A DNA stretch of 64,000 bases from Candidatus Woesearchaeota archaeon (GCA_964467035.1 CAYXNX010000004.1:89-64088), one strand, 5' to 3'. Positions 7,935 to 36,394 are shown, numbered from the stretch's first letter. Numbers and translations are program-made. Notes: a model not told the origin generated them from the sequence alone.

Positions 7935-8037
7935 TCTTATAATCGCTGTTAGTTTCTCTGAGGATTGATTTTTAATGCAATATGTCCGAGCGGAATGAAA
8001 TGGAGCGAAGGAGTTGCCCCGAAGCGCGCATTATGGT
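7935..8037 (+). repeat. G+C-rich junction element E3 (core CTGTTAG at 7946-7952, RM-2 right module)
   Basis: The right part aligns with 30597-30650 (gagga-ttgattttta-R-tgcaa..atgYccgaRg). gaatgaaatggagcga also occurs at 33811-33826. Confidence 0.55.
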
Positions 8038-8132
8038 AAAGTTATTAAATAATAAGAATCATTTTGAATATATGGTAAATGAAAACTTCAAAAAAGAAAA
8101 AACTTTAAATAAAATTCTTTTGTAGTTTAAAA

Positions 8133-9926
8133 ATGAGGAGATTTAAAATGAGGTTTAATAATTTAATACAAAAAAGAAATTTTGGAAAAGTATTTCTCCT
8201 GCCTTTCCTGATATTTGTATCCCTTGCTTTTTTCCAATCTGGTTTAGTTTCTGCTGATTGTCCTCCTGATTTTATTAGCTACTGGTCACATGATGAGAAT
8301 TATACTGAAGGCGGAACCTCTCTTGATTTCTATCTTGAAAACGATGGAAACATAAATGGAATGAATGATGGTTCTTTAAATGGTGGAGTAACACAAGGTG
8401 TTGCTGGTAGAATTGGAAATGCTTATTCGTTTGATGGTAGTGATGATTATGTTGAAGTTCCTGATGATGCTTCTTTAAGATTTGATAATGGAGATAAATT
8501 TACAGCACAGGCTTGGGTTAATTTTGATACATTTGATACAGGAAGTATTGACCATTACACATGGATTTCAAAAGGAAATTTTGGTTTATCTAATGGGAAT
8601 TATCAATTTGGTTGGCATGGAAACGATAATGCTTTAAAATTTACACATAAAGAAGGGGGAAATTGGTATGATACTTTAGACACTTCTGGATTTACACCCT
8701 CAACTAATACTTGGTATCATATTGTCATAGTTGTTGATGCAGATAATAATGAAGTTAGTTTTTATGTTAATGGAGAATTAAAAAGCACAGTTTCAAATTC
8801 TGATTTAGATACTTTAACAAGCACAGAACAAGAGAGATTTTTAATTGGTGGGAGATTGAATAATGGATTTCAAGAAGCCGTAAATGGAAAAATAGACGAA
8901 GTAAGAATTTATGATAGGGCTTTATCTGAAGAAGAAATAGAAGGATTATACAACGCAACAGACCACACTGTTGTAAGGGATGAATTAATAGCAGAGTATA
9001 GAATGGAAGAAACTTCTGGCTCTACTGCTTATGATACAAGTTATATTCAATCAGGACAAGTGAATGAAGCTTATGATTTTGATGGAGAAGATGATTATGT
9101 AGAAATACCTGACGATGATAGTTTAGATTTTGGTTCTGGTAATTTTGCTATTTCTGTTTGGAGTAAGACTTCTTGGGAAAGCGATAATTATCAACAATTT
9201 ATAAATAAATATCTTGGAGGCCATGATGGATGGTATTTGGGATTAGACTTTAATCAAGAACCTATTTGGAAAGCAGGAGATGGTGACAATATAGCAGTTA
9301 GATATTCTCAAGATTATGCCGATGGAGAATGGCATCATTATGTAGGTATGAGGGATGGAGATGAATTAATACTTTTTATAGATGGAGAACAAGTTGGAAC
9401 AGCAGACTTTTCTGGAGTGGGAGATGTAGACACTTCAGAGGATTTAATTTTGGGAACAAATGCAGATGCATCTAAAAATTTCTATGGGGGAAAATTAGAC
9501 GAAGTAGCTATCTGGGATAGGGCATTAAGTGAAAGTGAAATTCAAAAGATTTATGATAGAAGTAATGACCCCAGTAATAAGTATTATTGCAATAGTAAAG
9601 CGAATTTAACCTGGGTGGAACCAACTGAAGACATTTATGTTGCTAAAAATAAATTCTGGAATTACAGCCTTAAAGCTACTTGTCCAGAAATAGGTCCTCC
9701 CTGCGGGAAGATAGATGTTACTCTTGACCCTGAGGAGGCTGAGAAATTAAAAGAAGGTAAGAAACTTCAGGTAAGCGGAGGAGAGGTTACAGGAGTTGCC
9801 GGGAATGAAGAAGGTACTGAGGATAAAGAAAATAAAAAAGGAAAAGAAAAAGGTTTTTGGGAGAAGATTACTGGGTTTTTTGTAAATTTATTTAAATCTG
9901 GGGAAGGAGGAAAAAATGAACAATAA
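8133..9926 (+). CDS. secreted protein with two LamG/concanavalin-like lectin domains
   Basis: N-terminal signal/TM segment. Twice repeated pattern G.AY.FDG.DDYVE.PDD ... G..DEV.I.DRALSE.EI. Confidence 0.75.
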   Translation: MRRFKMRFNNLIQKRNFGKVFLLPFLIFVSLAFFQSGLVSADCPPDFISYWSHDENYTEGGTSLDFYLENDGNINGMNDGSLNGGVTQGVAGRIGNAYSFDGSDDYVEVPDDASLRFDNGDKFTAQAWVNFDTFDTGSIDHYTWISKGNFGLSNGNYQFGWHGNDNALKFTHKEGGNWYDTLDTSGFTPSTNTWYHIVIVVDADNNEVSFYVNGELKSTVSNSDLDTLTSTEQERFLIGGRLNNGFQEAVNGKIDEVRIYDRALSEEEIEGLYNATDHTVVRDELIAEYRMEETSGSTAYDTSYIQSGQVNEAYDFDGEDDYVEIPDDDSLDFGSGNFAISVWSKTSWESDNYQQFINKYLGGHDGWYLGLDFNQEPIWKAGDGDNIAVRYSQDYADGEWHHYVGMRDGDELILFIDGEQVGTADFSGVGDVDTSEDLILGTNADASKNFYGGKLDEVAIWDRALSESEIQKIYDRSNDPSNKYYCNSKANLTWVEPTEDIYVAKNKFWNYSLKATCPEIGPPCGKIDVTLDPEEAEKLKEGKKLQVSGGEVTGVAGNEEGTEDKENKKGKEKGFWEKITGFFVNLFKSGEGGKNEQ

Positions 9927-10095
9927 GAGAATTTTTACATTTTTTCAAGTATTTTTATTAATTATGGTTATCTTGGTTTCTTTATCAGTAAGTGCAGATA
10001 TACAAAATATTTCTAATTCCTCTATAACAGGAAAATCAATAGAGGAAGGTGTTGAGGAAGAGACTAAAAAAAAACTAATTTTTCTGAAGGATTAG
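9916..10095 (+). CDS. signal-peptide fragment of the giant surface protein (out of frame with the body)
   Basis: ATG preceded by GGAGG (9906-9910). MNNKRIFTFFQVFLLIMVILVSLSVSA is a classic signal/anchor. The frame stops 21 nt after the A9 tract. Confidence 0.6.
   Translation: MNNKRIFTFFQVFLLIMVILVSLSVSADIQNISNSSITGKSIEEGVEEETKKKLIFLKD
10066..10074 (+). other. A9 homopolymer at the frame switch between the signal peptide ORF and the giant ORF
   Basis: A -1 slip (or a +1A/-2A length change) here joins frame 1 (9916..) to the frame that is open from 10068 to 24692. Confidence 0.7.
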
Positions 10096-13000
10096 TTTCA
10101 GATAATTCTACTTTAAACAAGAGTCCTAATAAAAAAACAGATTTTAATGATACTAAAAATCTAAATGAATCAAATCAAACAGGGATTGACGGAAATAATA
10201 CTCCAATTAACAATACCAATAACAATACTAATCCTAAAATAAACCAGTCCAACCAAACTCTAGGAAACAATACAGATTTTAATGAAACCACAAGTAATGA
10301 AACTCTGGATAATAAAACTCTGGATAATAAAACTCAGGATAATGGGACAATATTAAATCAGACCACTAACAATAAAACTATTGAAAACAGAACAACTGAA
10401 GATGAAACTCCTGATAAGGAAACCTATGAGAATAAGACGTTTGAGAACGAAACCTATGGGAATGAAACTTTTTCTAGAGAAAACAAGAGTCTGTTAGTAA
10501 ATATTACAGAGCCAATTCACGAAGATATTAAAATTGGAGAGAATGTTAAGTGGAATTCTAATTTAATTATTTATAATCCTTACAATCATACCTGGAATAA
10601 TTTTTCTATAAACATAACAAAAAAAATCCCTGAAGATGCTTTTAATATTTCTGTTAATGGAAGTAAAAAGGAAAAAATAATTATTTCAGAAATAGATTCT
10701 CAAGAAGAAATAAAAAAAGATATTGAATTTTACACTTCTCCTGTAAAAATTAATATAACTGAAAACAAGACTCAAACCAGTCTTTTGGATATCTTGCCTC
10801 CTGAAGCAAACAATGTTCAAATAAAAGAAATGAAGAAAGAACAAACAAATACATTAGAAAAAAATATACAGAGTTCAAAAAAAGAAAGCCTAAAACCATC
10901 AGATATAAAAGGGGAAACAATAAGAAAAAATATTGTTTTAGAGCATAATTCAAGTTTACATTATAAAAATTTCTCAATAAATATTGATACAAATTCTTCA
11001 AAAGTCAGAGTAAAGGAAAAAGGGAAAAAAGAAGTTTTGTCTGAAAACAGAAAAGGAAAAATAGAATTAAAAGTTGATAGATTATCAAAAAAAAGTTTTG
11101 TTGTTGAAGAACAAGTTGAAGGATTTTCTGTCCTAAAAAAGAAACATAAGGATATTGAGGTTGGAAAAGATGTAAACTGGAGCATGAATCTAAATTTAAC
11201 TTCTGAAAATAAAATTGTAGAAGTCACATATCAAACACCTCCCCCTGAAAAAGAAGAAGAAAGGATTCCAAATGGGAAAAAAGTTAAAGTTTATTCAAAT
11301 TCTTCAAACCATTATTATAATGTTTCTGCTTCCACAGATATTTCTGAATCAAAGATAAAGCCAAGAATCTATCATTTGATTGATGGAAAAAGGGTGGATA
11401 TTACAAATAAAGAAAAATATAATGTTAGATTTATTGATGAAAACAATAATTCAAAATACGACAGAATTGAATGGAATGTCCCAAAATTATCTGAACAGGA
11501 ATTTGAGATTATTGAAATCTCTGATGCTCTTCATTTAGATGAAAACAGGAATTTTATAAGAGATGTTTATGACAAAGTTAAGGAAAAAGACGATAATTGG
11601 GCAACAATTAATAATTCTCAATATTTAAGAGCAACTTTTGAAGAGAATCTAACAGAAGATAATGATATAACTATTTATGCTAGACCTCTTGAGAGTTCAG
11701 GCTCCATAGATATTTATAAAAAAGGAGAGAATAACATAATAGCCAGTTTTGATAATATAGACAATGAGAAAGAATATAAAACTTACTTAGAGGGAATGAC
11801 AGGTTCCTCAAAAACCTTTGATTTAAAGATGTCAGGAGATATAGAACTTGATTATATTACAGACCCTACTGAAGACCCAATGGGAAATAAAGGGGCTATC
11901 TCAACTACTCCTGGAGACACTCCTTTTTATACAATAGATTCTAATCCGCAGAGTTGCAATTTAGATAGAGGAGAAAGTTGCACATTAACTTGGAGAGTTA
12001 ATGCTACAGGCTCAGAAGACACTCCTTGGAATTTTTATGGTATAATAGATTCAATCCATGATTCAGTAAATAACATGTATTCAGAAATAGTTAATGTCAC
12101 AATAACTTCCCTAAGTATTTCAGAGAGTTTTAATCCAAACCAAAATATAGAGACCAATGAAGTTGTTACTGTTTACGGAAATATTGAAACAAGTGGAGGT
12201 GAGAGAATAGGAAATAATCCTGTTTCAATTTATGCTAATGGAAACTCGCTGGGAACTACTTCAACTGATTCAACAGGTTTTTACGAATTTGATTTTAGTT
12301 TACCCACATCAGGAACATATGATATAAATGTCACAGCTTCAAGAAATAACTTATATACAGACAACTCCAAACAAATTAAAATATGGCCTTCTATTAATGT
12401 TACAGAATCAATTAATCCAGATACTACACAAGTAAAAGAAAATGTTAGTATTTTTGGTCATGTAGAACTTTATAATGGAACTATCTTAGAAAATCATGAC
12501 ATAAGTATTTATATGGGCGAAGATGAATTAAAATACAATTCTTCTTCAGGAATGCTTGAAAAAGACGCTACAGGAGATCTAACTACAGATTCATCAGGAA
12601 ATTACAATTACACTTATCAAATACCTTCAGAAGCAGGAGGAGCATATATTGTAAAAACAAACACTTCATATCACCATGAAAGGACAGGAGAAAGTACAAA
12701 AACCCTCTATGTCCAGTCAGGAGATGAAAAACTGGGAGCTATTCCTGAAACAGAAGGAGCAAAACCTTTCTATACAATAGATTCTAATCCGCAGAGTTGC
12801 AATTTAGATAGAGGAGAAAGTTGCACATTAACTTGGAGAGTTAATGCTACAGGACACCAACATGTGGGATTTTCTTTTTATGGAATTATAGAATCAATCC
12901 ATGATTCAGTTAGTGATGTGGAAAGTTCAAAAAACGATATAACAATAGCAGGAATGAATCTAAGCGAGGATTTCAATAAAGTAAGTGTTGATGAAAACGA

Positions 13001-16000
13001 GAGTACAGTGGAAGTTTACGGTTATTTAAACACTACAGATGGAGAGCCAGTAAAGGACCACAATATTTCAATTTATATTGATGGGAATAGATATTATTAT
13101 AATTCGGGAACAGATAAAATTGAACAAGGAGCTTCAGGACAAACTAAAACAGATTCAAATGGTTTTTATAATTACACATTTACTGTTCCAACAGCCAAAC
13201 ATACAGTTTTTATTAACTCAACACTAAATAATATTTATGCAGAAGAAAATAAAACCTTATTGATGCGTCCTGAGTGGAACTTAACATTAAATGGTGTTTC
13301 GGATAATATAACTATAAGTTCAGGAGAAGAGGTAGATGCAGAGATATCTGTTACAGATCCTTCAGTAGCTAACATGAGCATCTATAGAGAAGGAGTTCTT
13401 AGAGCAGAAGTATATGGAGGAGGAAACTTAACTTACATTGATTCAGATTACATTGAAGACAAATACTATAATATCACTGCTTTTTTTCCTGAACAAGAAG
13501 GTTATCTAAGCGACTCTATAACATATTTCGTTATTGTAGGGCCTGATGCGACAAATCCCGATGTTACTCTCCTCTCTCCCGAGAATAATTCAGAACTATA
13601 CGGAACTACAGAATTCAGGTTTCATGTAAGTGATAACTTCCTTAGACCATTAGACTGTTCTTTATACCTAAATGGAACTAAACAAGAAAATAAGTCAGTC
13701 AGTCCTAACAGCAACCATTCTTTCAATATTAGCTCAGTTCCAACAGGTTTTCCTGGAGAATGGTATGTTAATTGTACAGACGAGGCAGGTAATTCAGATA
13801 AAAGCGAGGTTAGAAATTACAATTTTGATAGTACTAAACCATTCATTAATATAACTTCTCCTTCAAACGGAACACTCTTTTACACTCCTACACCTGAATT
13901 AACTGTTTTTGTAAATGACTCTTATTCTTCAAATTTCAATTATTCCATTTTTATAGAAGGAGAGGTTAATAAAGAGGGTGGCGGTCTTACTACAGGAAGC
14001 AACAATATAACAACAAATCAATTGGAAAATGGAACTTATGAAGTAATAGTACAAGCAATTGATGAGTACGGTAATAAGGCTAATTCAACTCCTAAGTATA
14101 TTGAGGTTGATAATGCTTATGTATCTCTAATCTCCCCGGAGGATAACTTTGTTACCACCAGCCCTACAATTAATTTTGATTACAAATACATAGATGATGA
14201 TTATTCTACAGCTGATTGTTCTTTATATGTAAATGGTGCTCTGGAAGATAGTGAAAGTGATGTGTTAGAAGGCACTGAATCTACATTAACTTATGACCAT
14301 GGACAACAAGGGAGGGATATTAACTGGCTTATTGAGTGTGAAACTCCGAACTACGATAGGTCTAGTGAAAGGGCTATTTCAATAGATTATAAGAATCCAT
14401 GGTATAGTGACATCTCTGAGAATCCTGAAAGTGTTGCTAACTATACAGAAGAAAATAATACATTCAGCATAACTGCTAAAGATAATATTGAAATAGGTTC
14501 TGTTGTAATTGAGCATAATTTTTCAGGAACTCCAGAAAATAAAACCCTTGATTGTAGTGGCAGTGATACAGAAAGAGATTGTTCTTTCAGTAAGCAACTA
14601 TCTCCTGGAAATTATTATTATAAGTATTACATCAATGATAGTTTTGGATTAAAAAACTCTACAGAAGAAATCTCGTACATTGTTCAAAGAGAAACTCCTT
14701 CTTTAACTTTAAATTCAGACCCTTCATGGAATGAAGAACTAGGTACAGAAACAAATATAACCTGTTCTGTTGAGGAAAATGTCAATATTTCTTTGTATAG
14801 GGATGGTGTTTTGATGGGCTCTTCTGTTGGAGGGAGTATCTCTGACATACAATCCTTAGATATTGGAACTTACAATTATGTATGTAATAGTTCTGAGACA
14901 TCTCAATACAGGCCCAACTCGATAAGCAATACTTTAAATATAACTAAGAAAGAAGATAACATAGGTTTATTCCTCAATGGAAATCAAAATAATTTGACTA
15001 TTGCCTATGGAGAAGAAAGTAATGCTACTGCAATTTCCGATTCAGGAACTGAACAATTGTTTAGAGATGGTATTGAGATAAGTAATCCAGATATAAACAA
15101 TTTAGGAGTTGGTTATTATGAGTATTTGGCTAATTCTACAGGAAATTCCAATTATTCTTCTGGCGGTCCTGTTGGATATTATCTAAATGTTACGAGAGCT
15201 CAGACCAATATCAATCTAAGTATAGAACCAGATCATATCTACACTGGACAACAAGCAAATTTTACCTGTAATGTTAATCATAACCAATCTCAAATTACTT
15301 TATATGAAGATGGAGCAGAATTGATTTCAGGTTTTGGGAATATTAGTTACTCAAAAACTTATAGCTCTGAAGATAATTATACAATAACATGTAATACTTC
15401 TGAAAGTCAGAACTATACTTCTTATTCAGAAAGTCAGTTATTGGGTGTTGGGCCTAAATCAAATACAACTCTGGATTTAACAGCTAACCCTTCATGGAAT
15501 GAAGTGTATGGAACTGAAACAACTGTAGATTGTTCTGCGAACCATAATGAAGCAGAACCCAATCTTTTTGTAGGGGGAGAAAGTGTTTCGATACCTCACA
15601 CAACAAAACATCCTGCAGGAGAATATAACTATACTTGTAATATAAGTGAAACTGCAAACTATCAACCTGAAGAGGCATCAAATATAATGAATATAACCAA
15701 GACAGAAGATAACATAGGTTTATTCCTCAATGGAAATCAAAATAATTTGACTATTGCCTATGGAGAAGAAAGTAATGCTACTGCAATTTCCGATTCAGGA
15801 ACTGAACAATTGTTTAGAGATGGTATTGAGATAAGTAATCCAGATATAAACAATTTAGGAGTTGGTTATTATGAGTATTTGGCTAATTCTACAGGAAATT
15901 CCAATTATTCTTCTGGCGGTCCTGTTGGATATTATCTAAATGTTACTAGGGCCACCCCAAACATAACCTTAAATTCAGACCCTTCGTGGAATGAAGAACT

Positions 16001-19000
16001 AGATACAGAAACAAACATAACATGTTCTGTTGAGGAAAATGTCAATATTTCTTTGTATAGGGATGGTGTTTTGATGGGCTCTTCTGTTGGAGGGAGTATC
16101 TCTGACATACAATCCTTAGATATTGGAACTTACAATTATGTATGTAATAGTTCTGAGACATCTCAATACAGGCCCAACTCGATAAGCAATACTTTAAATA
16201 TAACTAAGAAAGAAGATAACATAGGTTTATTCCTCAATGGAAATCAAAATAATTTGACTATTGCCTATGGAGAAGAAAGTAATGCTACTGCAATTTCCGA
16301 TTCAGGAACTGAACAATTGTTTAGAGATGGTATTGAGATAAGTAATCCAGATATAAACAATTTAGGAGTTGGTTATTATGAGTATTTGGCTAATTCTACA
16401 GGAAATTCCAATTATTCTTCTGGCGGTCCTGTTGGATATTATCTAAATGTTACTAGGGCAAGTCCTGGCCTTGAGTTTTCCAGTGAAAATGGATTCAAAA
16501 TATATAAAGGCCAAAATACAACTATTGTATGTAATTCTTCAGATGAAAACCTTCTTGTTAATCTTTATAGGGATGGTTCTTTAGTAAATACATCTAATGG
16601 AAGTGTAAGCGAGTTTGTTGATTTTTCAAGTGGAAGTTATGATTATAAGTGTAACACTACAGGAAATAATAATTATTCTAAAGAGGAGATATCTCAAAAT
16701 CTTAATGTCTCAAATAAAACAGAAACTAAATTAGTCCTTGATTCTAGTGAAGGATGGACCATATCTGAAAAGGAGGAAACTACTCTTTCCTGTGAAATTG
16801 AAAATCATGATGAAACAAATGCCTCTTTATTTATAGATGACACTCTGGTTTCAAGTCCTTATAATTTTAATGATTCTCTAGGAGATTATAGCATAAAGTG
16901 TAATTCAAGTGAAACAGAAAATTATAGTTCAGAAACAAAAACTAAAGAATTAAATGTTAGAGAAGAAGGAAGTTGTAATTTAAGTTTTAGTAAGGATTCT
17001 GCATATAGAAAAGAAAATTTTACTGTTTATTGTAATTGCTTAGGCAATAGCCAAGAGCAATTGTTTAGAGAAGGCAATAATGTAACAGAAGAAATTGGCA
17101 AAAATGTTTCATTGGATAGTGCAGGAACATATGGCTATTTATGTTATGCTAATCAAAGTTCTCAATATCTTTATGCTGAAAATACTTCTTCCTTTACAAT
17201 AACTAAAACTCCTTCGGATATAAATTTAACACTTAATGGGGCAGAAAACAATATAACTGTTAGCCAGGAAGAGAATGTAGATATTGTATCCAGTATGGTT
17301 AACCCCTCTGAAGGAAGTATAACTGTTTTTGAAGACGGAAGTATAATACGGGAAGGAGAAAATAGAGTCTCTTTCCTTAAGGAGTTTAATAATCCAGGCA
17401 AGTATAAAATAACATCAAAATTTTCAGGAAACTCTGACTATAGTTCTACTAATGAAAGTTATTATGTAAATGTTCTTAATACAGAAGCTCCTGAAATTAA
17501 TTTGATTTCTCCTGAAGATAATTCCTGGATTTCCACAACAAGCAAAAATTTCAAATTTTCAGCAGATGATGAAGATGATGAAGTCAATTGTTCTTTATAC
17601 ATTAATGGAGGTGAAATTTCAAGTAAACAGGTTTCAACAGGAACTGAGCAACAATTTAGTTTTAATGGTTTAGATGAAGGAGAGAATCAAAAATGGAGTA
17701 TAGATTGTAAGGATTCTGCAGGAAATTATGCAAATAAATCCAGGAATTTCAATGTTGATTTAACAAAACCAAATGCCACTATTCTTTCTGAGGATATGAA
17801 TGTATCAGACAGTACCCCTACAATAGAAGTAGTTATGGAAGATAACTATGCTTCTAATTTATCCTATGAAATTTATGTGGACGATTTGGATAACACACAA
17901 GGTTTTAAATTAAACAAAGAAGGCTCTGGAATTGAAAACGGAACACCCACAAACATTACTCTAGACCAATTATCAAAAGGGACTTATAAAGTATATGTAA
18001 AAGCTATTGATAACGCAGGCAATACTTTTTCTTCTGAAACAATTACTATAGACATTTCCGGAAGTGTGATGTTCCTATTAAGTCCTGATAATAATTACCA
18101 TAGCAGTGACGATGATATAAACTTTACATTCAGGTTCTCATCTGAAACCCCTGAAATGAACTGCAGTCTTTACATTAACGATACAATTGTTGCTAATAAC
18201 GAATCTACAGAAGAGGGTGTAAATACTACTTTTGAGATATTTGATATTCCTGATTATTTTTCAACAAAATGGAGTGTAAAATGTTTCAAACCCTCGGATC
18301 CAGAAGTTAATGCAAATGATACTTATAATCTAAGAGTTGATACAGAAAAGCCCAAGTGGAAAAATCATAGTAGATACTATAATGCAAGTGAAACAGGTAT
18401 AACATACATTAATGTGACATTTACAGATAATTATGAAGTTGGAGATATTATAATGGAGAATGATTTTGATGGTGGGTGGAAAAACACTACTTTAAATTGT
18501 GAAGGAAACAGGACTTATAAGAAATGTAGCTATTCAGAAAGACTTCATGGAGGAAACCATACATATAGGTTTATTGGAAATGATTCAACAGGACAAGTAA
18601 ATAAAACACCTTACTTTAATCATCTTATTATAGAAAAATACGAATTCCTGTTAAATGATAAGGATTCGGATATTTGGGTGCAACCAGGAGCAGTAGTGAA
18701 GGTATATTCAAATTTTGTAGAGCCGGAATCAGGGGATGTTCATGTTTATAGAGAAGATACAAAAATAGGGACATGCAGTAATGCTAACGGATGTAGTTAT
18801 TATCCTTCTTTTGAAGAACCAGGAGTTTATAACATGACAGCTAATTTTTATAGCAATTATACTGATAAAACATATAAGAGAAACCATCTTGTTTATGTTA
18901 ATGGTACTCCACCTAAAACTAATATCTATAAGAATACATCCCATGTAGAGCAAGGGTATGAAAATATCTACATTAACTGGACAGCCAGTGATTCATTTTT

Positions 19001-22000
19001 AAACAATTCAGAATTTAATATAACTGATCCTGATGGAAATTTAATTTATAATTCTTTTAATAGTGCTGGAGAAGTTATTTTACAGCTTGATAATTTAACT
19101 CGTGAAGGGACCTATGATATAAGATTATATGCAGATGATTATTCAGGTAATAAGAATGAATCGCAGGATACTTTTGAAGTTACAGACTCTATGTCTCCTT
19201 CTCTTTCAATTTTTAAGAACCAATCAGAAGTTGAATATAACGAAGAGTCTATATATATTAACTGGACTTCTACAGACCTTAATCTAGATACAACTGAATT
19301 TAATGTGACTTATCCTAATGGAACTCTTATTTATGAAAGCACTTCAGAAACAGGAGAAATAAATTTAACTCCAGGGGATATTACAGAACTAGGAGATTAT
19401 GAAATTAATTTATGGGCAAATGATACCGCGGGTAATGAAAATTCAATTAGTGAAATTTTTGAGGTGGTAGATTTAGGATCTCCTGAAGTAAATATTCATT
19501 CTCCAGAAAATAAAACTTATGGTATTGAGGAATTGTTAGTTAATATTACTGCTAATGATGAACATGGGATTGACCAAATTTGGTATAATTGGAATGGAAC
19601 AAATGTAACTTATACAAATCCAACTAACGTAACATTTAATCAAGGATTGAACACTCTAAAAGCATGGACAAATGACACTTCGGGAAATATAGCTAAGGAT
19701 AATGTTACATTTACTATAGATACAGTTCCTCTTAATATAAGTATATTAAACCCTGGAAATAATTCTAAATTCAACTATTCTAATATCATTTTCAATGTTT
19801 CTTCAAACAAGGAAATGGAATGGTGTGGAATATCCATTGATGATGGAGATAATATTACAATGGAATTAAATAATTCGGGGACAGGAGCAAATTATTCAGA
19901 TACTTTCGAGGATAGAGAGCATTACTTTGAAGTAAGTTGTAATGATAGTGTTGGGAACACAGACACCTCTGGGAAATATTTCTTCTTAGTTGATACAATA
20001 AATCCTAATCTTTCAATTTTTAAGAATGAAACAGAAGTTGAATATAACGAAGAGTCTATATATATTAACTGGACTTCTACAGACCTTAATCTAGATACAA
20101 CTGAATTTAATGTGACTTATCCTAATGGAAGTGTAGTTTATTCCTCAGGTAATAGTGATGGGGAATTCGGTTTATCTCCTGCAAATCTAACTTCGGTGGG
20201 ATATTATAATGTTAGCTTGTGGGCCAATGACACAACAGGCAATGAAAATTCAATCAACGATAGCTTTGAAGTTTTTGCAGAAGTTGAACTGAATATATCA
20301 AAAACAAGCAATCTTGAAACAATTGATCCTACTGGAGGAGAGTTTAATTATATAATAAATATCTCAAATATTGGTTATGGGGATGCAAAAAATATAACTT
20401 TAGTTGAAAACTATCCTGAAAATGTAACATTTATTAATTCTACCCCTACGCCTGATTCAGGAAACAATACTTGGAATTTTAGTGTTGTGGAAGAAGGAGA
20501 AAATAAAATCATAGATATAATAGTGGATGCAAATTATGGTATTGAAAATGGAACTGAATTAGTAAACATAGTGAACCTTACCTATCTTGGAAGAGATAAA
20601 ACTGAAAAAAATATTAGTGCTATAGAAATAACAAAAATTATTGATGAAAATCTCCCAAGTGCTTTATTAATATCTCCTTCAAATGCTTCCATATTTAATG
20701 AGTCTAATGTTGAATTCATTTGCTCAGGAATGGATAGTGAATCTGTGCAAAAGATAAAGTTGTATGGTAGTTGGGGAAGCGGATGGGAAGTTAAATCTGA
20801 AGAAGAAGTTAATGGAACCTCTACTTCTGCAACATTTAATGAGGATGTTTTAGATGAGGGGAAATATATTTGGAGTTGCGAGGTTATAGATATTGGCGGA
20901 AATAAAGTTATGGCTTCTCAAAATAGAACATTTACAGTAGATGAAACTCCTCCAACAGTAGATTTAATAGACCCTGTAGGAAATAAAACAGTAGGTGATA
21001 AAAATATAGAGCTTACCTATAATGTTAGTGATAATCTTTCGAATGTTGAATCGTGTGAATTGTTTATTGATAATTCTTCTGTTAAATCAAGCAACAATAT
21101 AAATGAAAATTCTGAAAATAATTTCAATGTAAGTTTAAATAACAGGGTATACGAATGGAAAGTATCTTGTATAGATGAAACAGATAATGAAGGATTTTCT
21201 GATACTGAGACATTTAATGTAGAACTTTTGTTAGATGTTACCTTGAACACCCCAAAAAATAATTCTTATCTTAATGATAGTAATGTAGAATTGAATTGTT
21301 CTGCAGAGTCAGGATATCAACTAAGTAATATGACTATTTTTCTGAAAAATGGGACATGGACTAATAAAACATTTAATGTTTCAGGATATACCAACACTTC
21401 AATCTGGGAGGTAGAAAACCTTTCAGAAGGAGAATCTGAATGGTATTGTTCTGCAAGCAATATTGAAGGAAATGAGTCTACCTCTATTAACAAAAATACC
21501 TTTTATGTTGATTTGACAAATCCTTATATTGAGTTAATTGAACCTGGAAATAATAGTATAAAGAATGAAGAAGAAACCACTTTTAAGTATAATGTGACTG
21601 ATAATATATCCCTTATACCAAGATGTGATTTTTATTTGGATGGAGCAAAAAACGAGAGCTTTTTCAATGTAAGTAAGAATACAGTCCAGGAGTTTGGTAA
21701 GGAGGTATCTGAGGGTAGGCATAACTGGAGTATAAATTGTAATGATACTTCAGGCAGGTTAGGTTCTTCTCCTGTATTTTATTTCAATTATACTGGTGCT
21801 AGGTATACTGTTAATATAACCAATCCTTACACAGATATATATGAATCGCATTTCCATCTCCCTCCAACCGAATCCTGGTTTAGTAATTATACAGAAGCAT
21901 ATTTTAACAAAACCTATGATGTTAATGCTACAATAGATGTATTCAAATCAATATATGGTTGTTCCGCAAGTCTTATTATTAAACCAGACAATTTAACATA

Positions 22001-24692
22001 TATTAATAAAACAAAATATATTGGAGATATAGCAAAGGGTGAAGAAGAGGTTGTTTCTTGGGATGTAAACATCACTGATGCAGGAGTCTATAATAAAAGA
22101 TATAATTTTTCAGTTAATGTTTCTTGTAGTAATGCAGAAAAAAGAAATGACACTCTAAAAATATTTGCTTTACATAATTGGAAATCTCAATGTAATCATT
22201 CAAGAGAACATCCTGAAAACATCAATGAAACTTTTTATCAATATGAAGAAATTCCTGTAGATTGTTGGTTTTATAAAAACGGTAAATTAGCAGATCCTTA
22301 TGATATTACAATCCAATTGATGGGTACAGATACCTCTAAAGAGAGAAATGTTTGGAGAATTCATAGTTATGATAATAAAACTGATGAAGAAGTTAATGAA
22401 ATGATGCATAATGTGGCAAATATGTATTTGCCTGATGCGTTTTTTCAACCTCAACGGAAAGATCAGTTTTTTATTATAGAAAATTCTTCAGGCAATTTTG
22501 AGAGAGAAGGCGTTGGACATTACAAGACAGCGTTTTCCACTGATTATTTTAGTAACCCTAATAATTATTTTGTTCATTTTCAGGCAAATATATATGATGA
22601 TGAAGGAAATTGGTTAGATTATGCACCTCATGAAGACTTTTGGTTATTACCTCCAAAACCTTGTGTTTTTAGAGGAAACGGAACTATTGGTGAAAGAACA
22701 CTAAGATCCGGAGATGTAATTTCTGCTTATGATGCTAATGGAACTAAATGCGGAAACACTACAGTAACAGAGGAAAATAAATATGAATTATATTGTAGTG
22801 GAGACAACCAGGATTCTTCAGAAGATGAAGGAGCCAGACCAGGAGACAATATTAGTTTTGAAGTAAATGGTATGTCAGCTGAAACAGAAGGAGACGCAAT
22901 ATGGGAAACTAAGGAGATTAAGAATGTAAACTTATCTGTTGGTGCAATCTTTGATTTAGTCTCTCCCCCGAACAATACTTTTACCCAGAACAGAACATTT
23001 AATTTTAATTGGATGCATCCAAACACCACAGAGAGGAAGTTTGATTTATTGGTAGCAAATGATAGTTCTTTTAATGATATTGTTTTAAATGAACCTGCAA
23101 ATGAAACAGAATATCAAACAAACAGTTCTCAAAACTTATCTGATGGATATTATTTCTGGAGAGTGGATGCTTTTGATAATTCGTGGAATTTCTTAAACAA
23201 AACTGAATATTGGCATTTGATTGTTGACAATGTTGCTCCAGATATAATTTCTATTAATGTAACTCCTAAAATCGTAGAACCATTAAACCCTATTAATGTG
23301 AGTGCTAATATATCTGACAACAGAAAAATGGACAGAGTTGTTTTAAATATGACTTCTCCTGAAGGTTTGATAAAGAGATCCTGGGAGATGAATATTTCTG
23401 AAGGTCTTTATAAATTTATTATCCCGGAGGATGAAGTAGATAGGTTCGGACAATTTAACCTTACTATTTCTGCTTATGATAAAGCAGATAATTTGAACAG
23501 AACTAACTCTAGCTTTACTGTTGCAGAAGAAGGAGTTGCAGATGTTAATATTACCAACCCTGAAGATGATTCTGCAGTTGAACCAAATACTTCTTTTAAT
23601 TTAACTGCTAATATAACAGCTCTTCTAAAAAATATAAATGGATGTAATGCAACCTTGTTAATATCAAATCAATCTCTAATAAACAAAACACCAAATGAAA
23701 ATTACACAAAATCTATTGGCAGTTTGTCTAAAGATGAATCTATATCAGAATTATGGAATCTTTCAACTGAGAATAAAACCGGAAAAACTGAATTAACTGT
23801 AGAAACATCCTGCACTGATGGAGTTAGCGATAGTGAAACTATAACTCTTCATTTGATTAGAGATAAAATTTCTTACCCTTTTAATCTTAGTGCAGAAGTT
23901 CTTCCTAACCAGAAAGATATAAAAGTTAATTGGAGTGAAGTTCCTGGAGCAGATAGCTATAATATCTACCTGTCTCAGGATATAGACAATTTCGATTCTA
24001 GCCCTAATGTAACAGGAATTTCAGGAACTGCATGGAACCATACTTCTGCTGAACAAGATCAATACTATTTCTATAAAGTAGGGGCTGTAAGAAACACTTT
24101 TGTTAATATCTCTGAAGAAACAGTAGGAAAATTTACTTTTGAATATATTGCAAGCCAAGATGGAACTAAAGGATACAATTTTATAAGCCTCCCACTTAAT
24201 GTAAGTTATGATTCAGAAACTTTTTTGGAAGATATACCTTCTGATTATAATCCTGTAATATCAGAGTTAGATAGAAGTGATCCTGAAAAAGAAGAATGGA
24301 CTCCTCATGTTAAAGGTACAGAAAAGAATATGTTTAATCTAAGTTTAGGAGAAGGTTATATGATTAATGTGAATCATAATTATAGTCATACAATTGCAGG
24401 AGATGCAATAAATACTCCAACAAATCTTAGTTTAATTTCAAGTTCAGATGGAACTAAAGGATACAATGCTATTGGAATACAATATCATGCAGAGAATTAT
24501 GATTCAGAAACTTTTTTGGAAGATATACCTTCTGATTATAATCCTGTAATATCAGAGTTAGATAGAAGTGATCCTGAAAAAGAAGAATGGACTCCTCATG
24601 TTAAAGGTACAGAAAAGAATATGTTTAATCTAAGTTTAGGAGAAGGTTATATGATTAATGTGAATCATAATCATTCAATGATAATAGAATAA
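10068..24692 (+). CDS. giant cell-surface protein body (Ig-like/adhesin repeats, N-X-S/T rich); frame open from 10068, no ATG until far downstream
   Basis: I translated 10077-10800 codon by codon and found no stop, so the frame continues into the 4,635-aa track ORF. Many repeats of about 85-100 aa. No N-terminal signal of its own. Confidence 0.8.
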   Translation, partial: KKTNFSEGLVSDNSTLNKSPNKKTDFNDTKNLNESNQTGIDGNNTPINNTNNNTNPKINQSNQTLGNNTDFNETTSNETLDNKTLDNKTQDNGTILNQTTNNKTIENRTTEDETPDKETYENKTFENETYGNETFSRENKSLLVNITEPIHEDIKIGENVKWNSNLIIYNPYNHTWNNFSINITKKIPEDAFNISVNGSKKEKIIISEIDSQEEIKKDIEFYTSPVKINITENKTQTSLLDILPPEANNVQIKEMKKEQTNTLEKNIQSSKKESLKPSDIKGETIRKNIVLEHNSSLHYKNFSINIDTNSSKVRVKEKGKKEVLSENRKGKIELKVDRLSKKSFVVEEQVEGFSVLKKKHKDIEVGKDVNWSMNLNLTSENKIVEVTYQTPPPEKEEERIPNGKKVKVYSNSSNHYYNVSASTDISESKIKPRIYHLIDGKRVDITNKEKYNVRFIDENNNSKYDRIEWNVPKLSEQEFEIIEISDALHLDENRNFIRDVYDKVKEKDDNWATINNSQYLRATFEENLTEDNDITIYARPLESSGSIDIYKKGENNIIASFDNIDNEKEYKTYLEGMTGSSKTFDLKMSGDIELDYITDPTEDPMGNKGAISTTPGDTPFYTIDSNPQSCNLDRGESCTLTWRVNATGSEDTPWNFYGIIDSIHDSVNNMYSEIVNVTITSLSISESFNPNQNIETNEVVTVYGNIETSGGERIGNNPVSIYANGNSLGTTSTDSTGFYEFDFSLPTSGTYDINVTASRNNLYTDNSKQIKIWPSINVTESINPDTTQVKENVSIFGHVELYNGTILENHDISIYMGEDELKYNSSSGMLEKDATGDLTTDSSGNYNYTYQIPSEAGGAYIVKTNTSYHHERTGESTKTLYVQSGDEKLGAIPETEGAKPFYTIDSNPQSCNLDRGESCTLTWRVNATGHQHVGFSFYGIIESIHDSVSDVESSKNDITIAGMNLSEDFNKVSVDENESTVEVYGYLNTTDGEPVKDHNISIYIDGNRYYYNSGTDKIEQGASGQTKTDSNGFYNYTFTVPTAKHTVFINSTLNNIYAEENKTLLMRPEWNLTLNGVSDNITISSGEEVDAEISVTDPSVANMSIYREGVLRAEVYGGGNLTYIDSDYIEDKYYNITAFFPEQEGYLSDSITYFVIVGPDATNPDVTLLSPENNSELYGTTEFRFHVSDNFLRPLDCSLYLNGTKQENKSVSPNSNHSFNISSVPTGFPGEWYVNCTDEAGNSDKSEVRNYNFDSTKPFINITSPSNGTLFYTPTPELTVFVNDSYSSNFNYSIFIEGEVNKEGGGLTTGSNNITTNQLENGTYEVIVQAIDEYGNKANSTPKYIEVDNAYVSLISPEDNFVTTSPTINFDYKYIDDDYSTADCSLYVNGALEDSESDVLEGTESTLTYDHGQQGRDINWLIECETPNYDRSSERAISIDYKNPWYSDISENPESVANYTEENNTFSITAKDNIEIGSVVIEHNFSGTPENKTLDCSGSDTERDCSFSKQLSPGNYYYKYYINDSFGLKNSTEEISYIVQRETPSLTLNSDPSWNEELGTETNITCSVEENVNISLYRDGVLMGSSVGGSISDIQSLDIGTYNYVCNSSETSQYRPNSISNTLNITKKEDNIGLFLNGNQNNLTIAYGEESNATAISDSGTEQLFRDGIEISNPDINNLGVGYYEYLANSTGNSNYSSGGPVGYYLNVTRAQTNINLSIEPDHIYTGQQANFTCNVNHNQSQITLYEDGAELISGFGNISYSKTYSSEDNYTITCNTSESQNYTSYSESQLLGVGPKSNTTLDLTANPSWNEVYGTETTVDCSANHNEAEPNLFVGGESVSIPHTTKHPAGEYNYTCNISETANYQPEEASNIMNITKTEDNIGLFLNGNQNNLTIAYGEESNATAISDSGTEQLFRDGIEISNPDINNLGVGYYEYLANSTGNSNYSSGGPVGYYLNVTRATPNITLNSDPSWNEELDTETNITCSVEENVNISLYRDGVLMGSSVGGSISDIQSLDIGTYNYVCNSSETSQYRPNSISNTLNITKKEDNIGLFLNGNQNNLTIAYGEESNATAISDSGTEQLFRDGIEISNPDINNLGVGYYEYLANSTGNSNYSSGGPVGYYLNVTRASPGLEFSSENGFKIYKGQNTTIVCNSSDENLLVNLYRDGSLVNTSNGSVSEFVDFSSGSYDYKCNTTGNNNYSKEEISQNLNVSNKTETKLVLDSSEGWTISEKEETTLSCEIENHDETNASLFIDDTLVSSPYNFNDSLGDYSIKCNSSETENYSSETKTKELNVREEGSCNLSFSKDSAYRKENFTVYCNCLGNSQEQLFREGNNVTEEIGKNVSLDSAGTYGYLCYANQSSQYLYAENTSSFTITKTPSDINLTLNGAENNITVSQEENVDIVSSMVNPSEGSITVFEDGSIIREGENRVSFLKEFNNPGKYKITSKFSGNSDYSSTNESYYVNVLNTEAPEINLISPEDNSWISTTSKNFKFSADDEDDEVNCSLYINGGEISSKQVSTGTEQQFSFNGLDEGENQKWSIDCKDSAGNYANKSRNFNVDLTKPNATILSEDMNVSDSTPTIEVVMEDNYASNLSYEIYVDDLDNTQGFKLNKEGSGIENGTPTNITLDQLSKGTYKVYVKAIDNAGNTFSSETITIDISGSVMFLLSPDNNYHSSDDDINFTFRFSSETPEMNCSLYINDTIVANNESTEEGVNTTFEIFDIPDYFSTKWSVKCFKPSDPEVNANDTYNLRVDTEKPKWKNHSRYYNASETGITYINVTFTDNYEVGDIIMENDFDGGWKNTTLNCEGNRTYKKCSYSERLHGGNHTYRFIGNDSTGQVNKTPYFNHLIIEKYEFLLNDKDSDIWVQPGAVVKVYSNFVEPESGDVHVYREDTKIGTCSNANGCSYYPSFEEPGVYNMTANFYSNYTDKTYKRNHLVYVNGTPPKTNIYKNTSHVEQGYENIYINWTASDSFLNNSEFNITDPDGNLIYNSFNSAGEVILQLDNLTREGTYDIRLYADDYSGNKNESQDTFEVTDSMSPSLSIFKNQSEVEYNEESIYINWTSTDLNLDTTEFNVTYPNGTLIYESTSETGEINLTPGDITELGDYEINLWANDTAGNENSISEIFEVVDLGSPEVNIHSPENKTYGIEELLVNITANDEHGIDQIWYNWNGTNVTYTNPTNVTFNQGLNTLKAWTNDTSGNIAKDNVTFTIDTVPLNISILNPGNNSKFNYSNIIFNVSSNKEMEWCGISIDDGDNITMELNNSGTGANYSDTFEDREHYFEVSCNDSVGNTDTSGKYFFLVDTINPNLSIFKNETEVEYNEESIYINWTSTDLNLDTTEFNVTYPNGSVVYSSGNSDGEFGLSPANLTSVGYYNVSLWANDTTGNENSINDSFEVFAEVELNISKTSNLETIDPTGGEFNYIINISNIGYGDAKNITLVENYPENVTFINSTPTPDSGNNTWNFSVVEEGENKIIDIIVDANYGIENGTELVNIVNLTYLGRDKTEKNISAIEITKIIDENLPSALLISPSNASIFNESNVEFICSGMDSESVQKIKLYGSWGSGWEVKSEEEVNGTSTSATFNEDVLDEGKYIWSCEVIDIGGNKVMASQNRTFTVDETPPTVDLIDPVGNKTVGDKNIELTYNVSDNLSNVESCELFIDNSSVKSSNNINENSENNFNVSLNNRVYEWKVSCIDETDNEGFSDTETFNVELLLDVTLNTPKNNSYLNDSNVELNCSAESGYQLSNMTIFLKNGTWTNKTFNVSGYTNTSIWEVENLSEGESEWYCSASNIEGNESTSINKNTFYVDLTNPYIELIEPGNNSIKNEEETTFKYNVTDNISLIPRCDFYLDGAKNESFFNVSKNTVQEFGKEVSEGRHNWSINCNDTSGRLGSSPVFYFNYTGARYTVNITNPYTDIYESHFHLPPTESWFSNYTEAYFNKTYDVNATIDVFKSIYGCSASLIIKPDNLTYINKTKYIGDIAKGEEEVVSWDVNITDAGVYNKRYNFSVNVSCSNAEKRNDTLKIFALHNWKSQCNHSREHPENINETFYQYEEIPVDCWFYKNGKLADPYDITIQLMGTDTSKERNVWRIHSYDNKTDEEVNEMMHNVANMYLPDAFFQPQRKDQFFIIENSSGNFEREGVGHYKTAFSTDYFSNPNNYFVHFQANIYDDEGNWLDYAPHEDFWLLPPKPCVFRGNGTIGERTLRSGDVISAYDANGTKCGNTTVTEENKYELYCSGDNQDSSEDEGARPGDNISFEVNGMSAETEGDAIWETKEIKNVNLSVGAIFDLVSPPNNTFTQNRTFNFNWMHPNTTERKFDLLVANDSSFNDIVLNEPANETEYQTNSSQNLSDGYYFWRVDAFDNSWNFLNKTEYWHLIVDNVAPDIISINVTPKIVEPLNPINVSANISDNRKMDRVVLNMTSPEGLIKRSWEMNISEGLYKFIIPEDEVDRFGQFNLTISAYDKADNLNRTNSSFTVAEEGVADVNITNPEDDSAVEPNTSFNLTANITALLKNINGCNATLLISNQSLINKTPNENYTKSIGSLSKDESISELWNLSTENKTGKTELTVETSCTDGVSDSETITLHLIRDKISYPFNLSAEVLPNQKDIKVNWSEVPGADSYNIYLSQDIDNFDSSPNVTGISGTAWNHTSAEQDQYYFYKVGAVRNTFVNISEETVGKFTFEYIASQDGTKGYNFISLPLNVSYDSETFLEDIPSDYNPVISELDRSDPEKEEWTPHVKGTEKNMFNLSLGEGYMINVNHNYSHTIAGDAINTPTNLSLISSSDGTKGYNAIGIQYHAENYDSETFLEDIPSDYNPVISELDRSDPEKEEWTPHVKGTEKNMFNLSLGEGYMINVNHNHSMIIE
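11928..12010 (+). repeat. 83-nt exact repeat, copy 1 (copy 2 at 12771-12853), inside the giant gene
   Basis: Encodes YTIDSNPQSCNLDRGESCTLTWRVNATG in both copies. Confidence 0.9.
14709..16453 (+). repeat. near-identical intragenic repeats: 485-nt copies at 14709-15193 and 15969-16453, plus a third 243-nt copy at 15704-15946
   Basis: The 243-nt unit starts at 14951, 15704 and 16211 (agaagataacataggtttattcc...). The flanking 240 nt is shared only by copies 1 and 3, with a few substitutions. Confidence 0.9.
24206..24671 (+). repeat. C-terminal tandem duplication (period 291 nt); 175 nt identical at 24206-24380 and 24497-24671
   Basis: Encodes YDSETFLEDIPSDYNPVISELDRSDPEKEEWTPHVKGTEKNMFNLSLGEGYMINVNHN twice. 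Confidence 0.9.
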
Positions 24693-24734: not shown

Positions 24735-27700
24735 ATGCCAAGGGTAAAAAAAGGGGAATACAATAGAATAAAAAAGAAACTACTTTTAAATATATTTACT
24801 TTGATGTTTTTTATTATTATTTTATCAGGTCTTGTTTTAGCTGGAGGGAATAAGGCTGTTTGGACTTATGTAAACAAACCAAATGGAGACCCTGCTGAAG
24901 GAGCTAATGCAACCTACCGTGTTTTTTTAGAAGGCGATACAGGAGGATTCCCCGAATCTGAACAGTGTTACTGTGTTTCTTATCCAGGTGAAACTGCTTC
25001 TGATGGAAGTATGGTGGATGATCTAAGAAATTTAAAATATGAATCAACTTGTGCTTTTGGAGGAAGAGAAAAAGGAGATAGCTGTGGCTTACATTGGTCA
25101 GAAGGAGATCCAATATGGATTTTAGCAGATGGAAGTACAATGGATCCCCCGTTAGGAACAGGCAATGTTTCAGATACAATAGATGCATTTGGAACACAAA
25201 AGCTAGACAACATAACTCTTAGCTCAGGGCCAAATAATCCTCCGAATATTGACAGTGTTTCTCCTGGTTCGGGAAATTGGTATAATGAGTCTTCTTCCCA
25301 AGGTATTTCAGTAGAGGTTAATACTAATGAAGATTCAACATGTAGATGGAGTAAAAGCCCTATGGACTATTCATCAAAACCATATGATTTTACAGGAACA
25401 CAGTTAACTCATAATTATATCCTGGATTTGTGGCAAGAAAATGCAAATAATATTTACATAACTTGTCAGGATTCAGAAGGAGCTAATAGTGATGAGTATC
25501 ATTTAATACTGAACAAGGATACTACTTCTCCTGTTACTGATGATGATTATTCTTATAATGGGGGTTGGTATAATCAAAATGCAATTATTAATTTGAATGA
25601 GCAAGATTCTGGCTCAGGTGTAGATACTACCTATTATTGCATTGATGACTCAGATACATGTTCTCCTTCTCAAATATATAGTGATTCAGTTAATATCTCT
25701 GATGAGGGAACGAGTTACTTAAGATATTATTCAATAGACAATGTTGGAAATATCCAGGAAACCCAGTCTGTTGAAGTAAAAATAGAAAAAAATGCTCCGA
25801 TTACAGAAACAAACTTTACTAATAATAATACATGGGTGAATACAACCCAGTATGTCTGGCTGAACTATACTGATTCTGGCAATGTTTCAGGAAAAGATTG
25901 GACAAAGTATTGCACAGATGCTGGTTGTGATCCTTCAAGTGGAACAGATTATACAAGCCAGGTAGAATTTTCATCTGATCAAGAAACTAGCTTCAGGTAT
26001 GCAAGTAAAGATAATGCAGGAAATATTGAGACAACAAACGAATTAATTATAAAAATAGATAAAACACCTCCTACTACATCAGACGATTACACTCATGATG
26101 GAAGTTGGTATAACGACAATGCAGATATAACTCTTAATGAAAATTGTGATATTTCAGGATGTGAGTGGACAAAATACTGCACAGGAGAAGAATGTAATCC
26201 AAACACTGATTATACAGGAGAAACTATTGACTTTTCTGAAAATGGAACTCTAAGATATTATTCAAAAGATAATGCAGGCAATATCCAAGATGTTAGAGAG
26301 ACAACCATACTTATAGATAAAAAAGCTCCAGATATAAATGACGATTATGCCTATGATGATTTTTGGATAAATCATTCAACAGGAACAATAACATTAACCC
26401 CGAGTGATGCCGGAGGAAGTGGGTTAGAAAATGATCCTGATGCTGTTAAAATATGTGGGGGAGATGGGTGTGACCCTGAATCAACAAGTGGAATAAATTC
26501 TCCTTATGAATTAGATTATAGTTCTGAACAAGAAACTGTTTATAGATATCAATCATATGATAAAGCAGGAAGTGGCTCAGAAATAGGGAATTTTACAGTA
26601 AAAATAGATAAAACACCTCCAAATACCTATGATGATTATGCCTATAATGATACTTGGAATAATAAAAATGCTTCAATAAATTTAATTGAATCAGACCTTC
26701 CAGATCCTGCAAATTCAGGAATAAATATTACTTATTATTGTACTACAGATAATCTCAATGATTCCTGTGTTCTTGAAACAAAATATATAGGAGAAAAAAT
26801 AAATTTTTTTGAAAGCGGAGTTCTTAGGTACTATTCAAAAGATAATGCAGGCAATACTCAGAATGCTAAAGAAGCAATCATTAAAATTGATAAACAGAAT
26901 ATCTCAATTGCAAATGCCTCTGTTTTAATAGAAAATGGTTCAACTTATTCTACAGAAACAACTCTCCATTTTGATTATTTTGGATTTGAAGATCAAGCGC
27001 AACTTTCAGGAATAGATGGTTATTATTATAATTTTTCAAACAATGAAGGAACAACTTCAGGAAGCTGGGATACAGACCAAAATGGAGTTCTATCCGGAGC
27101 TAGCCAAGGGAATGTGAGTGTTTATGTATGGGGTAAGGATAAAGCAGGGAATATAGGTCCTGCAGTAAGTGATTCTATTATAGTAGATTCTGTCAATCCG
27201 GTTTTTTCTAATTGGAATAATTCTCAAATAAAAATGTCTGATTCAGGACCAATGAATATCAATGTAACTATAACAGATGAAACTTCTGGGGTAAAAGGAA
27301 TGCCTTCTATAAGATATAAATATGGAGAAGATAGTTGGTCTGAATGGAAAAATATAAGTTTGGTTTCCGGACAAAACTACACTTATGATATACCTGACCC
27401 AAATGGATGGTATGATTATTACAATGAAAACGTTTCTTGGCAGGTTAGAGCTAGAGATAATGCAGGAAATGAAGTAGATTCATCTATACATACTTTTCTT
27501 ATAGGCAGTGATGAACCAGCACCCATTGTAATACAAAAGAAACTAGAGTTTTTGAATGAAACAAAAGATTTTGTAAGATATAAAATAACAGATAAGGTAC
27601 ATAATACATTAAACAATACAGATATGTCTGATGTCCAGTTTGGAGATGGAGATATAATTCAGAATATAACACCGCCTGAAGACACATTTGACATAATTAA

Positions 27701-32461: not shown

Positions 32462-32600
32462 ATCTTTCGGTTTCTATCTTTTAGCCCGAATTCTGATTAG
32501 ACATAATCGCTGTTATACGCCCCGACGAGTGAAACGAGGAGAGCCTGCAAGGCGTGGTCGGAGCGAAGCGACGAAGAAGTGGTGTGAGTTTTCGTTAAAT
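32459..32600 (+). repeat. junction element E7 (core CTGTTAT at 32510-32516)
   Basis: The left part gcccgaattctga-ttagacataat equals the E6 left part. Positions 32539-32570 are identical over 32 nt to 33666-33697. Confidence 0.75.
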
Positions 32601-33532: not shown

Positions 33533-33720
33533 AACATCGCGATTAAGGAAAGTTAATTTCTCCCGCGAGTGTAACGAGCTGGCTGAGAAATTAATTTAGG
33601 AAAATCCTGCAAGGATTTTCTGTTTAAGCCCTGTTAAATCCTCTGAACAAAATCTTTGATTTTGTGAGAGCCTGCAAGGCGTGGTCGGAGCGAAGCGGAG
33701 GGCGTAAGTCCCAATCTCCA
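33533..33720 (+). repeat. junction element E8 (AACATCG left module, core CTGTTAA at 33631-33637)
   Basis: Hairpins 33553-33562/33585-33594 (10 bp) and 33599-33620 (gaaaatcc-tgcaa-ggattttc). Shares a 32-nt block with E7. Confidence 0.7.
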
Positions 33721-33832: not shown

Positions 33833-33960
33833 ATAAGGGGTGTTAATCGACCCCAAATACTTGGAGAGGCACGAGTTCTTCAGATATTTGTTGGAAGTGA
33901 GTTTTGCGTTGGGCGGGGTCTTGATAATAGAAGGGTTGTGGGGAGCAAAATTTTGATTAA
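33833..33960 (+). repeat. L repeat copy 1 (noncoding element of about 125 nt)
   Basis: About 90% identical by eye to 34840-34964 and 36134-36259. Indels between copies break any reading frame. Confidence 0.9.
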
Positions 33961-34839: not shown

Positions 34840-34964
34840 ATAAGGGTGTTAATCGACCCCAAATACTTGGAGAGGCACGAGTTTTTCAGATATTTGTTTG
34901 AGTGAGTTTTGCATTGGGGGTGTCTTGACAATAGAAGGGTTGTGGGAAGCAAAATTTTGATTAA
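34840..34964 (+). repeat. L repeat copy 2
   Basis: See copy 1. Immediately followed by tcgCTGTTAT (core at 34968-34974). Confidence 0.9.
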
Positions 34965-36133: not shown

Positions 36134-36259
36134 ATAAGGGGTGTTAATCGACTTCGAATACTTGGAGAGGCACGAGTTCTTCAGATATTTGTTTGAGTGA
36201 GTTTTGCATTGGGGGTGTCTTGACAATAGAGGGGTTGTGGGGAGCAAAATTTTGATTAA
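36134..36259 (+). repeat. L repeat copy 3 (adjacent to the recombinase gene; not followed by CTGTTA)
   Basis: Ends gattaaCAG, so TTAACAG (the reverse complement of CTGTTAA) sits at 36256-36262. Confidence 0.9.
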
Positions 36260-36377: not shown

Positions 36378-36394
36378 TAGTGTTTAGTGTTATA

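Follow-up and report, generated by a model that had tools for sequence, protein, structure and literature searches.

A giant surface-protein gene of a Pacearchaeota archaeon is broken at a nine-adenine tract behind its signal peptide

The 59-aa open reading frame (ORF) at 9916-10095 and the giant ORF that overlaps its 3' end constitute a single secreted-protein gene, broken at a tract of nine adenines (A9). Positions are counted in the window, i.e., the whole 64-kb stretch of DNA that was analysed. The locus should be annotated as one frameshifted CDS rather than split into a 59-aa peptide and a 4,635-aa protein that begins at a TTG and is devoid of signal peptide. Annotated as two ORFs, the largest secreted protein of the genome would be mis-localised.

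The DNA has a GC content of ~30% and carries archaeal genes, i.e., FttA/aCPSF1 with a KH domain, an archaeal CCA-adding enzyme, OapC and TrmB regulators. FttA is 82% identical to the FttA of a Pacearchaeota MAG, and nearly all of its best 80 matches are labelled Pacearchaeota, Woesearchaeota, Nanoarchaeota or unclassified archaeon. Judged by its gene content, the host is a Pacearchaeota (DPANN) archaeon. The giant gene is located on the plus strand, in a cluster of surface-protein genes. Upstream, positions 8133-9926 (plus strand) encode a secreted protein with two LamG domains. This gene overlaps the ATG at 9916 by 11 nt, which suggests that the LamG gene and the giant gene belong to the same operon. 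Downstream, positions 24735-29000 (plus strand) encode a 1,421-aa secreted protein with OmpL47-type beta-barrel domains, which belongs to the same cluster.

The 59-codon ORF (9916-10095, plus strand) is the true 5' end of the giant gene: it comprises a start codon, a signal peptide, ~23 mature residues, 7 out-of-frame codons and a TAG. The first-pass annotation had described a strong GGAGG, a textbook signal peptide and a stop at 10093-10095, and all three are found. The Shine-Dalgarno sequence GGAGG (9906-9910) is located 5 nt before the ATG, inside the 3' end of the LamG gene. The predicted signal peptide (Kyte-Doolittle heuristic) covers aa 1-27 (9916-9996), with K4 and R5 in the n-region, a hydrophobic core of ~17 residues and a c-region SVSA before DIQ. 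The TAG at 10093-10095 follows after 59 codons. The translation reads MNNKRIFTFFQVFLLIMVILVSLSVSA followed by DIQNISNSSITGKSIEEGVEEETKKKLIFLKD, the division being placed before DIQ. In the 4,925-aa fusion of the two ORFs, TM-like hydrophobicity (Kyte-Doolittle) is seen at residues 3-32 only, i.e., in the signal peptide.

The giant frame is closed by a TAA at 10065-10067, then open from 10068 to the TAA at 24690-24692. This gene body (10068-24692, plus strand) has 4,874 codons with no stop and contains Ig-like/Big_7, Big_13, DUF11 and OmpL47-type beta-sandwich domains. The whole 4,925-aa fusion contains 294 N-X-S/T sequons. A predicted peptide encoded 3' of the junction in the giant frame is TNFSEGLVSDNSTLNK. 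It had been claimed that this frame is open from 10068 and stop-free over 10077-10800, that it has no ATG near its 5' end and that the M at 10785 is a TTG. The computed frame stays open up to 24692, and its first ATG, GTG or TTG is indeed the TTG at 10785, with no Shine-Dalgarno sequence upstream. Over the 239 codons that precede this TTG (10068-10784), there are 0 stops, vs. a mean of 21.3 and a minimum of 6 in 20,000 shuffles; the other two frames contain 16 and 48. The same stretch contains 32 sequons in the giant frame vs. 1 and 1 in the other frames. The absence of stops together with the 32 sequons means that it is coding and extracellular-looking, yet it is devoid of a start codon.

These 239 codons weigh heavily on the reading of the locus as two genes, i.e., a small secreted peptide and a giant protein initiated at a non-canonical codon or at the TTG 10785. 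Gene callers do give the ORFs separately, the 59-aa ORF being called on the source contig, which measures 64,212 nt, and also on a Logan contig of run SRR11308339 (L001). However, independent initiation of the giant ORF was rejected: the 239 codons, although clearly coding, include neither ATG nor GTG nor TTG, and no near-cognate codon within 10068-10784 has a Shine-Dalgarno sequence. In addition, the downstream part has no hydrophobic segment, yet is dense in sequons and Ig-like domains. The existence of two genes is thus hardly credible. An alternative genetic code was also rejected as the cause of the break, because the break is a change of frame and not a stop; TAA, TAG and TGA end 28, 8 and 8 genes, respectively.

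The two frames are open together over a single stretch of 25 nt (10068-10092, plus strand), so the frame change must occur there. The A9 tract (10066-10074, plus strand) encodes Lys-Lys-Lys at codons 51-53, and the break is located 150 nt into the giant gene. It had been proposed that the frames overlap at this run and that an A10, an A7 or a -1 slip would give one secreted protein of ~4,925 aa. The reconstruction bears this out: one A inserted at the tract gives a 4,925-aa ORF without internal stop, and A7 likewise restores the frame. This A9 is the only one on the plus strand of the 64-kb window; two T9 runs are found elsewhere (e.g., at 38194-38202), and no homopolymer of 10 nt or more is present in the window. 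The chance that one of only three A/T runs of at least 9 nt in 64 kb falls in the 25-nt overlap is ~1e-3, and a coincidence of this order places the indel in the A9 tract itself.

Twelve distant relatives (Pacearchaeota/Woesearchaeota MAGs and metagenomes) are 36-51% identical to the giant protein over a domain at aa ~380-600. All twelve are continuous ORFs, and in 11 of them an N-terminal hydrophobic anchor is encoded in the same ORF. This domain (~11200-11900) has no Pfam match and contains the motifs ALHLDE, VKEKDDNW, ITIYAR and FDLK. It is common to giant surface proteins of Pacearchaeota/Woesearchaeota MAGs (P0001, P0002, L002-L013) and may be a lineage-specific module.

A decaying pseudogene was considered and rejected, since there is a single frame break and the downstream frame is stop-free. 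Further disabling mutations are absent over the 4,874 codons that follow the break, vs. a stop density of 0.07-0.15 per codon off-frame. With so long a stop-free frame past the break, the gene is not an old pseudogene; the break is either recent or the gene still selected.

The A9 itself is probably genuine, since an independent Logan assembly is identical and the ~90 other in-gene runs are in frame; the two assemblies agree, though they were probably built from the same reads. Logan contig SRR11308339_29652 (2,830 nt) is 100% identical to positions 7987-10816, A9 included, and a second Logan contig of SRR11308339 encodes exactly the downstream 1,421-aa protein. The competing view is that the organism has A10 and an intact gene, one A having been dropped in the consensus. 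Homopolymer length errors grow with tract length, and the tract at 10066-10074 is the longest A run on the plus strand. Frameshifts in draft genomes are commonly errors; e.g., a frameshift case in Sulfolobus aIF1 vanished on resequencing (PMC8211752). Moreover, both assemblies likely derive from one run, and a platform-systematic undercall of A10 would hit both. Against this view, the k-mer assembler, which is independent of the source assembly, yields the same A9 over 2,830 identical nucleotides, and if the platform or the assembler were error-prone at homopolymers, frame breaks would be expected at several of the ~90 in-gene runs of 7-9 nt. The window contains 123 A/T runs of at least 7 nt, of which 89 are well inside long intact ORFs and three more are in the giant frame (10131-10718). 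None of the ~90 other in-gene runs is associated with a frame break, and an A9 in the catalytic domain of ArgRS (43701-43709, minus strand) leaves the frame intact. A sequencing or assembly artefact is thus unlikely, without being far-fetched.

Homopolymers were counted on both strands of 502 kb of Pacearchaeota-type DNA, i.e., the window plus the fetched loci L002-L093. A/T runs of 7, 8 and 9 nt number 597, 133 and 6, respectively, and none reaches 10 nt. This abrupt drop suggests a strong selection against A/T runs of at least 9 nt in Pacearchaeota-type genomes. In many prokaryotes, selection against slippage-prone runs becomes visible at nine nucleotides (PMC1088944). With the run count cut at nine, an in-frame A10 would be exceptional and highly unstable.

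We give somewhat more than even weight to an interpretation that overlaps with adaptive switching: the hypermutable tract would carry a genuine OFF allele of recent origin, which could in principle revert and probably lets some full-length product through. Positions 9916-24692 form one gene, whose product would be a Sec-exported, adhesin-like surface protein of ~4,925 aa, probably heavily N-glycosylated. In the genotype that appears to dominate the sample, the frame is broken at the Lys-coding poly(A) run, which has nine adenines instead of the ten (or seven) that an open frame requires. Replication slippage from A10 to A9, at the longest homopolymer of the region, most likely caused the break, and a +1 slippage would reverse this contraction. 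From the ATG at 9916, translation would mostly end at the TAG at 10093 and give a 59-aa signal-peptide stub. Slippage of the RNA polymerase, making an A10 mRNA from the A9 template, or a -1 slip of the ribosome on A_AAA_AAA would yield a full-length minority. As the tract is slippery at both the transcription and the ribosome levels, some full-length protein is likely even from an A9 genome. Against a reversible OFF allele, it must be said that no homopolymer in 0.5 Mb of related DNA attains the ten nucleotides that the ON allele (A10) would have.

As regards transcription, a sense-strand run of at least 9 A/T is present at the frame junction (A9), and transcriptional slippage could plausibly rescue the giant gene in a leaky manner. 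We know of no measurement of RNA-polymerase slippage in DPANN or other archaea. Tamas and colleagues reportedly described in 2008, by sequencing transcripts, the rescue of poly(A)-tract frameshifts by polymerase infidelity in the AT-rich endosymbionts Buchnera and Blochmannia. The resemblance lies in a small AT-rich symbiont-type genome and in a long poly(A) frameshift within an otherwise intact gene. The difference is that those are bacteria with sequenced transcripts, whereas the Pacearchaeota case is known from DNA alone. In Thermus dnaX, a nine-A run leads to ~50% transcriptional slippage (PMC1088944). T. thermophilus dnaX and the 9A/9T sites of IS elements (PMC1088944) have in common with the giant gene nine sense-strand A's at a frame junction. 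In dnaX, however, the templated frame is the full-length one, the slippage product is shorter and the site is conserved, whereas in the giant gene the templated frame is the truncated one. Besides, dnaX is bacterial, while the giant gene would depend on an archaeal RNA polymerase and has been read only as genomic DNA.

Programmed recoding would imply that A9 is the normal state and that the cell makes a fixed, low amount of full-length protein, via -1 frameshifting or productive transcriptional slippage. Several features of the site point in this direction: (i) a perfect X_XXY_YYZ heptamer, A_AAA_AAA, lies in the 0 frame within the ORF overlap, and the 0-frame stop is 7 codons downstream; (ii) a 7-bp hairpin (10083-10102, plus strand, -6.5 kcal/mol) begins 8 nt past the A9 tract; (iii) a GAGGA is located 8-12 nt upstream of the tract, in a Glu-rich stretch. 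There are also archaeal precedents (fucA1, Mg-chelatase and a halovirus), besides the nine-A slippage of Thermus dnaX. Sulfolobus fucA1 uses -1 frameshifting at A-AAA-AAT, which was demonstrated in Sulfolobus and reaches ~5% in E. coli (PMC1616953); A_AAA_AAR in Mg-chelatase and A_AAA_AAC in a halovirus are archaeal slippery sites (PMC5009743). Sulfolobus solfataricus fucA1 (PMC1616953) and archaeal Mg-chelatase (PMC5009743) have the same arrangement as the giant gene, i.e., a short ORF, a long -1 ORF and an overlap with an A-rich heptamer. However, the frameshift product of fucA1 was demonstrated and was abolished by mutation of the site, and the Mg-chelatase site is conserved across genera by purifying selection, whereas the flanking stimulators of the giant gene are weak. 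A strong frameshift stimulator was in fact rejected: the hairpin, at just -6.5 kcal/mol, is at the 5th percentile of equal-sized windows of the same gene, and the downstream folds (z-scores of 0.16 and -1.0) do not differ significantly from shuffles. Rfam gave no known RNA element around the site at E up to 1. Furthermore, the split arrangement is found in 0 of the 12 distant relatives, and the 59-aa 0-frame product has no evident function. Programmed recoding is thus held to be improbable.

A tract just after the signal peptide is the classic layout of an ON/OFF contingency locus, but it is not diagnostic. A host-attached lifestyle is presumed for DPANN archaea, and giant surface proteins are prime candidates for the contact. 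Adaptive phase variation would mean that the tract is maintained for its random changes between A9 and A10, by which a giant surface protein (host-contact or antigenic) is turned ON or OFF in the population. It is consistent with a 5' tract whose length sets the frame (A9 being present, and A10 or A7 restoring the frame), with its position at codons 51-53 just past the signal peptide, with an OFF product reduced to a short stub and with the integrity of the remaining 14.6-kb ORF. On the other hand, a single allele is on record, and the surface-protein genes of the window show no enrichment in long tracts. The giant gene, which occupies 23% of the window, contains 3 of the 15 A8+ runs of the plus strand, i.e., no over-representation. 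The A7-A8 runs that other surface genes have close to their 5' ends simply specify Lys-rich n-regions, which a GC content of 30% would lead one to expect. Runs of at least 9 nt are depleted, not enriched, the six runs in 502 kb being the whole count. Adaptive phase variation is consequently regarded as doubtful. It is also rather unlikely that the A9/A10 tract acts as a contingency switch, or as a slippage-dependent throttle, on the ~4,925-aa host-contact surface protein.

We know of no homopolymer-controlled surface-protein switch documented in an episymbiotic archaeon; if true, the present one would be, to our knowledge, the first. If the tract switches or throttles, minimal archaea would share with bacterial pathogens a cheap stochastic control of surface proteins, and the locus is concrete and testable. 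If it is a mutation or an error only, the case is routine, a frameshift at a slippery homopolymer being of a familiar type.

Poly(A)/poly(T) tracts are reported to be enriched at gene 5' ends in bacteria and archaea, which is not diagnostic, and the A7/A6 tract of inlA is a reversible switch (PMC2831843). As in the giant gene, the tract of Listeria monocytogenes inlA (A7 to A6; PMC2831843) is a poly(A) near the 5' end of a large gene for a secreted surface adhesin, a contraction by one base leaves only a short stub of the protein, and the tract can revert through replication slippage. The cases differ in that both alleles and the reversion frequency were measured for inlA, whereas one allele of the giant gene is known. 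The giant gene also differs by its DPANN host, its A9 tract and a protein ~six times larger.

Public data contain no second allele of the tract: both assemblies, which probably stem from a single run, have A9. A protein of the fused allele is absent from 5.8e9 clustered proteins, and the fused junction peptide, used as a query, matched only the 59-aa ORF of the window. For the 59-aa ORF and a 592-aa form of the LamG protein, Logan contig SRR11308339_29652 is the sole record. No exact entry was retrieved for the giant protein as started at the TTG, for FttA, for the integrase fragment or for a LamG form of 597 aa. Protein-guided scans gave no orthologue of the giant protein, the only relatives being those 36-51% identical over one internal domain, and no close relative of the upstream LamG protein was found. 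There is no exact match to the flanking DNA in GTDB representative genomes or JGI metagenomes. No mention of run SRR11308339 was found in the literature.

Repeats are present in the giant gene. Two identical copies of a 55-aa module are found at the C-terminus (24216-24380 and 24507-24671), and two identical copies of the 30-aa motif PFYTIDSNPQSCNLDRGESCTLTWRVNATG near the N-terminus (11922 and 12765). LDNKT is encoded by a 15-nt tandem repeat of 3.3 copies (10295-10343). The Logan pipeline left the repeat-rich interior of the giant gene unassembled, its contigs breaking at 10816 and near 24642.

Elsewhere in the window, a Xer/phage-type integrase (36380-37234, plus strand) is split by an in-frame TAG at 36659-36661 (DVMDKKM, stop, INIKYAKVPKR). 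The ORF for the N-terminal SAM-like domain (36380-36661) and the catalytic ORF (36683-37234, i.e., positions 1-169 of the 172 of PF00589) are in the same frame. The split corresponds to a nonsense mutation or to readthrough and not to a homopolymer error; TAG otherwise ends 8 genes of the window.

In the gene of a secreted PKD-domain protein, an A8 run (46120-46127) separates the Shine-Dalgarno sequence AGGAGG from the ATG (46131); a change in the length of this run would shift the spacing between the Shine-Dalgarno sequence and the start. GC-rich repeats occupy intergenic gaps of this AT-rich genome: a 121-nt element in three copies (33838-33958, 34844-34964 and 36139-36259), two of them 95% identical; an exact 32-nt repeat (32539-32570 and 33666-33697); and a 49-nt element in three copies (29463, 32004 and 32496). 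They have no Rfam match at the gathering score and may be MITE-like elements or small RNAs. Finally, a 360-nt ORF-free gap contains a match to the Rfam Bacteria_small_SRP model (51207-51305, plus strand; score 40.2 vs. a gathering score of 40), which is probably part of the archaeal SRP RNA.
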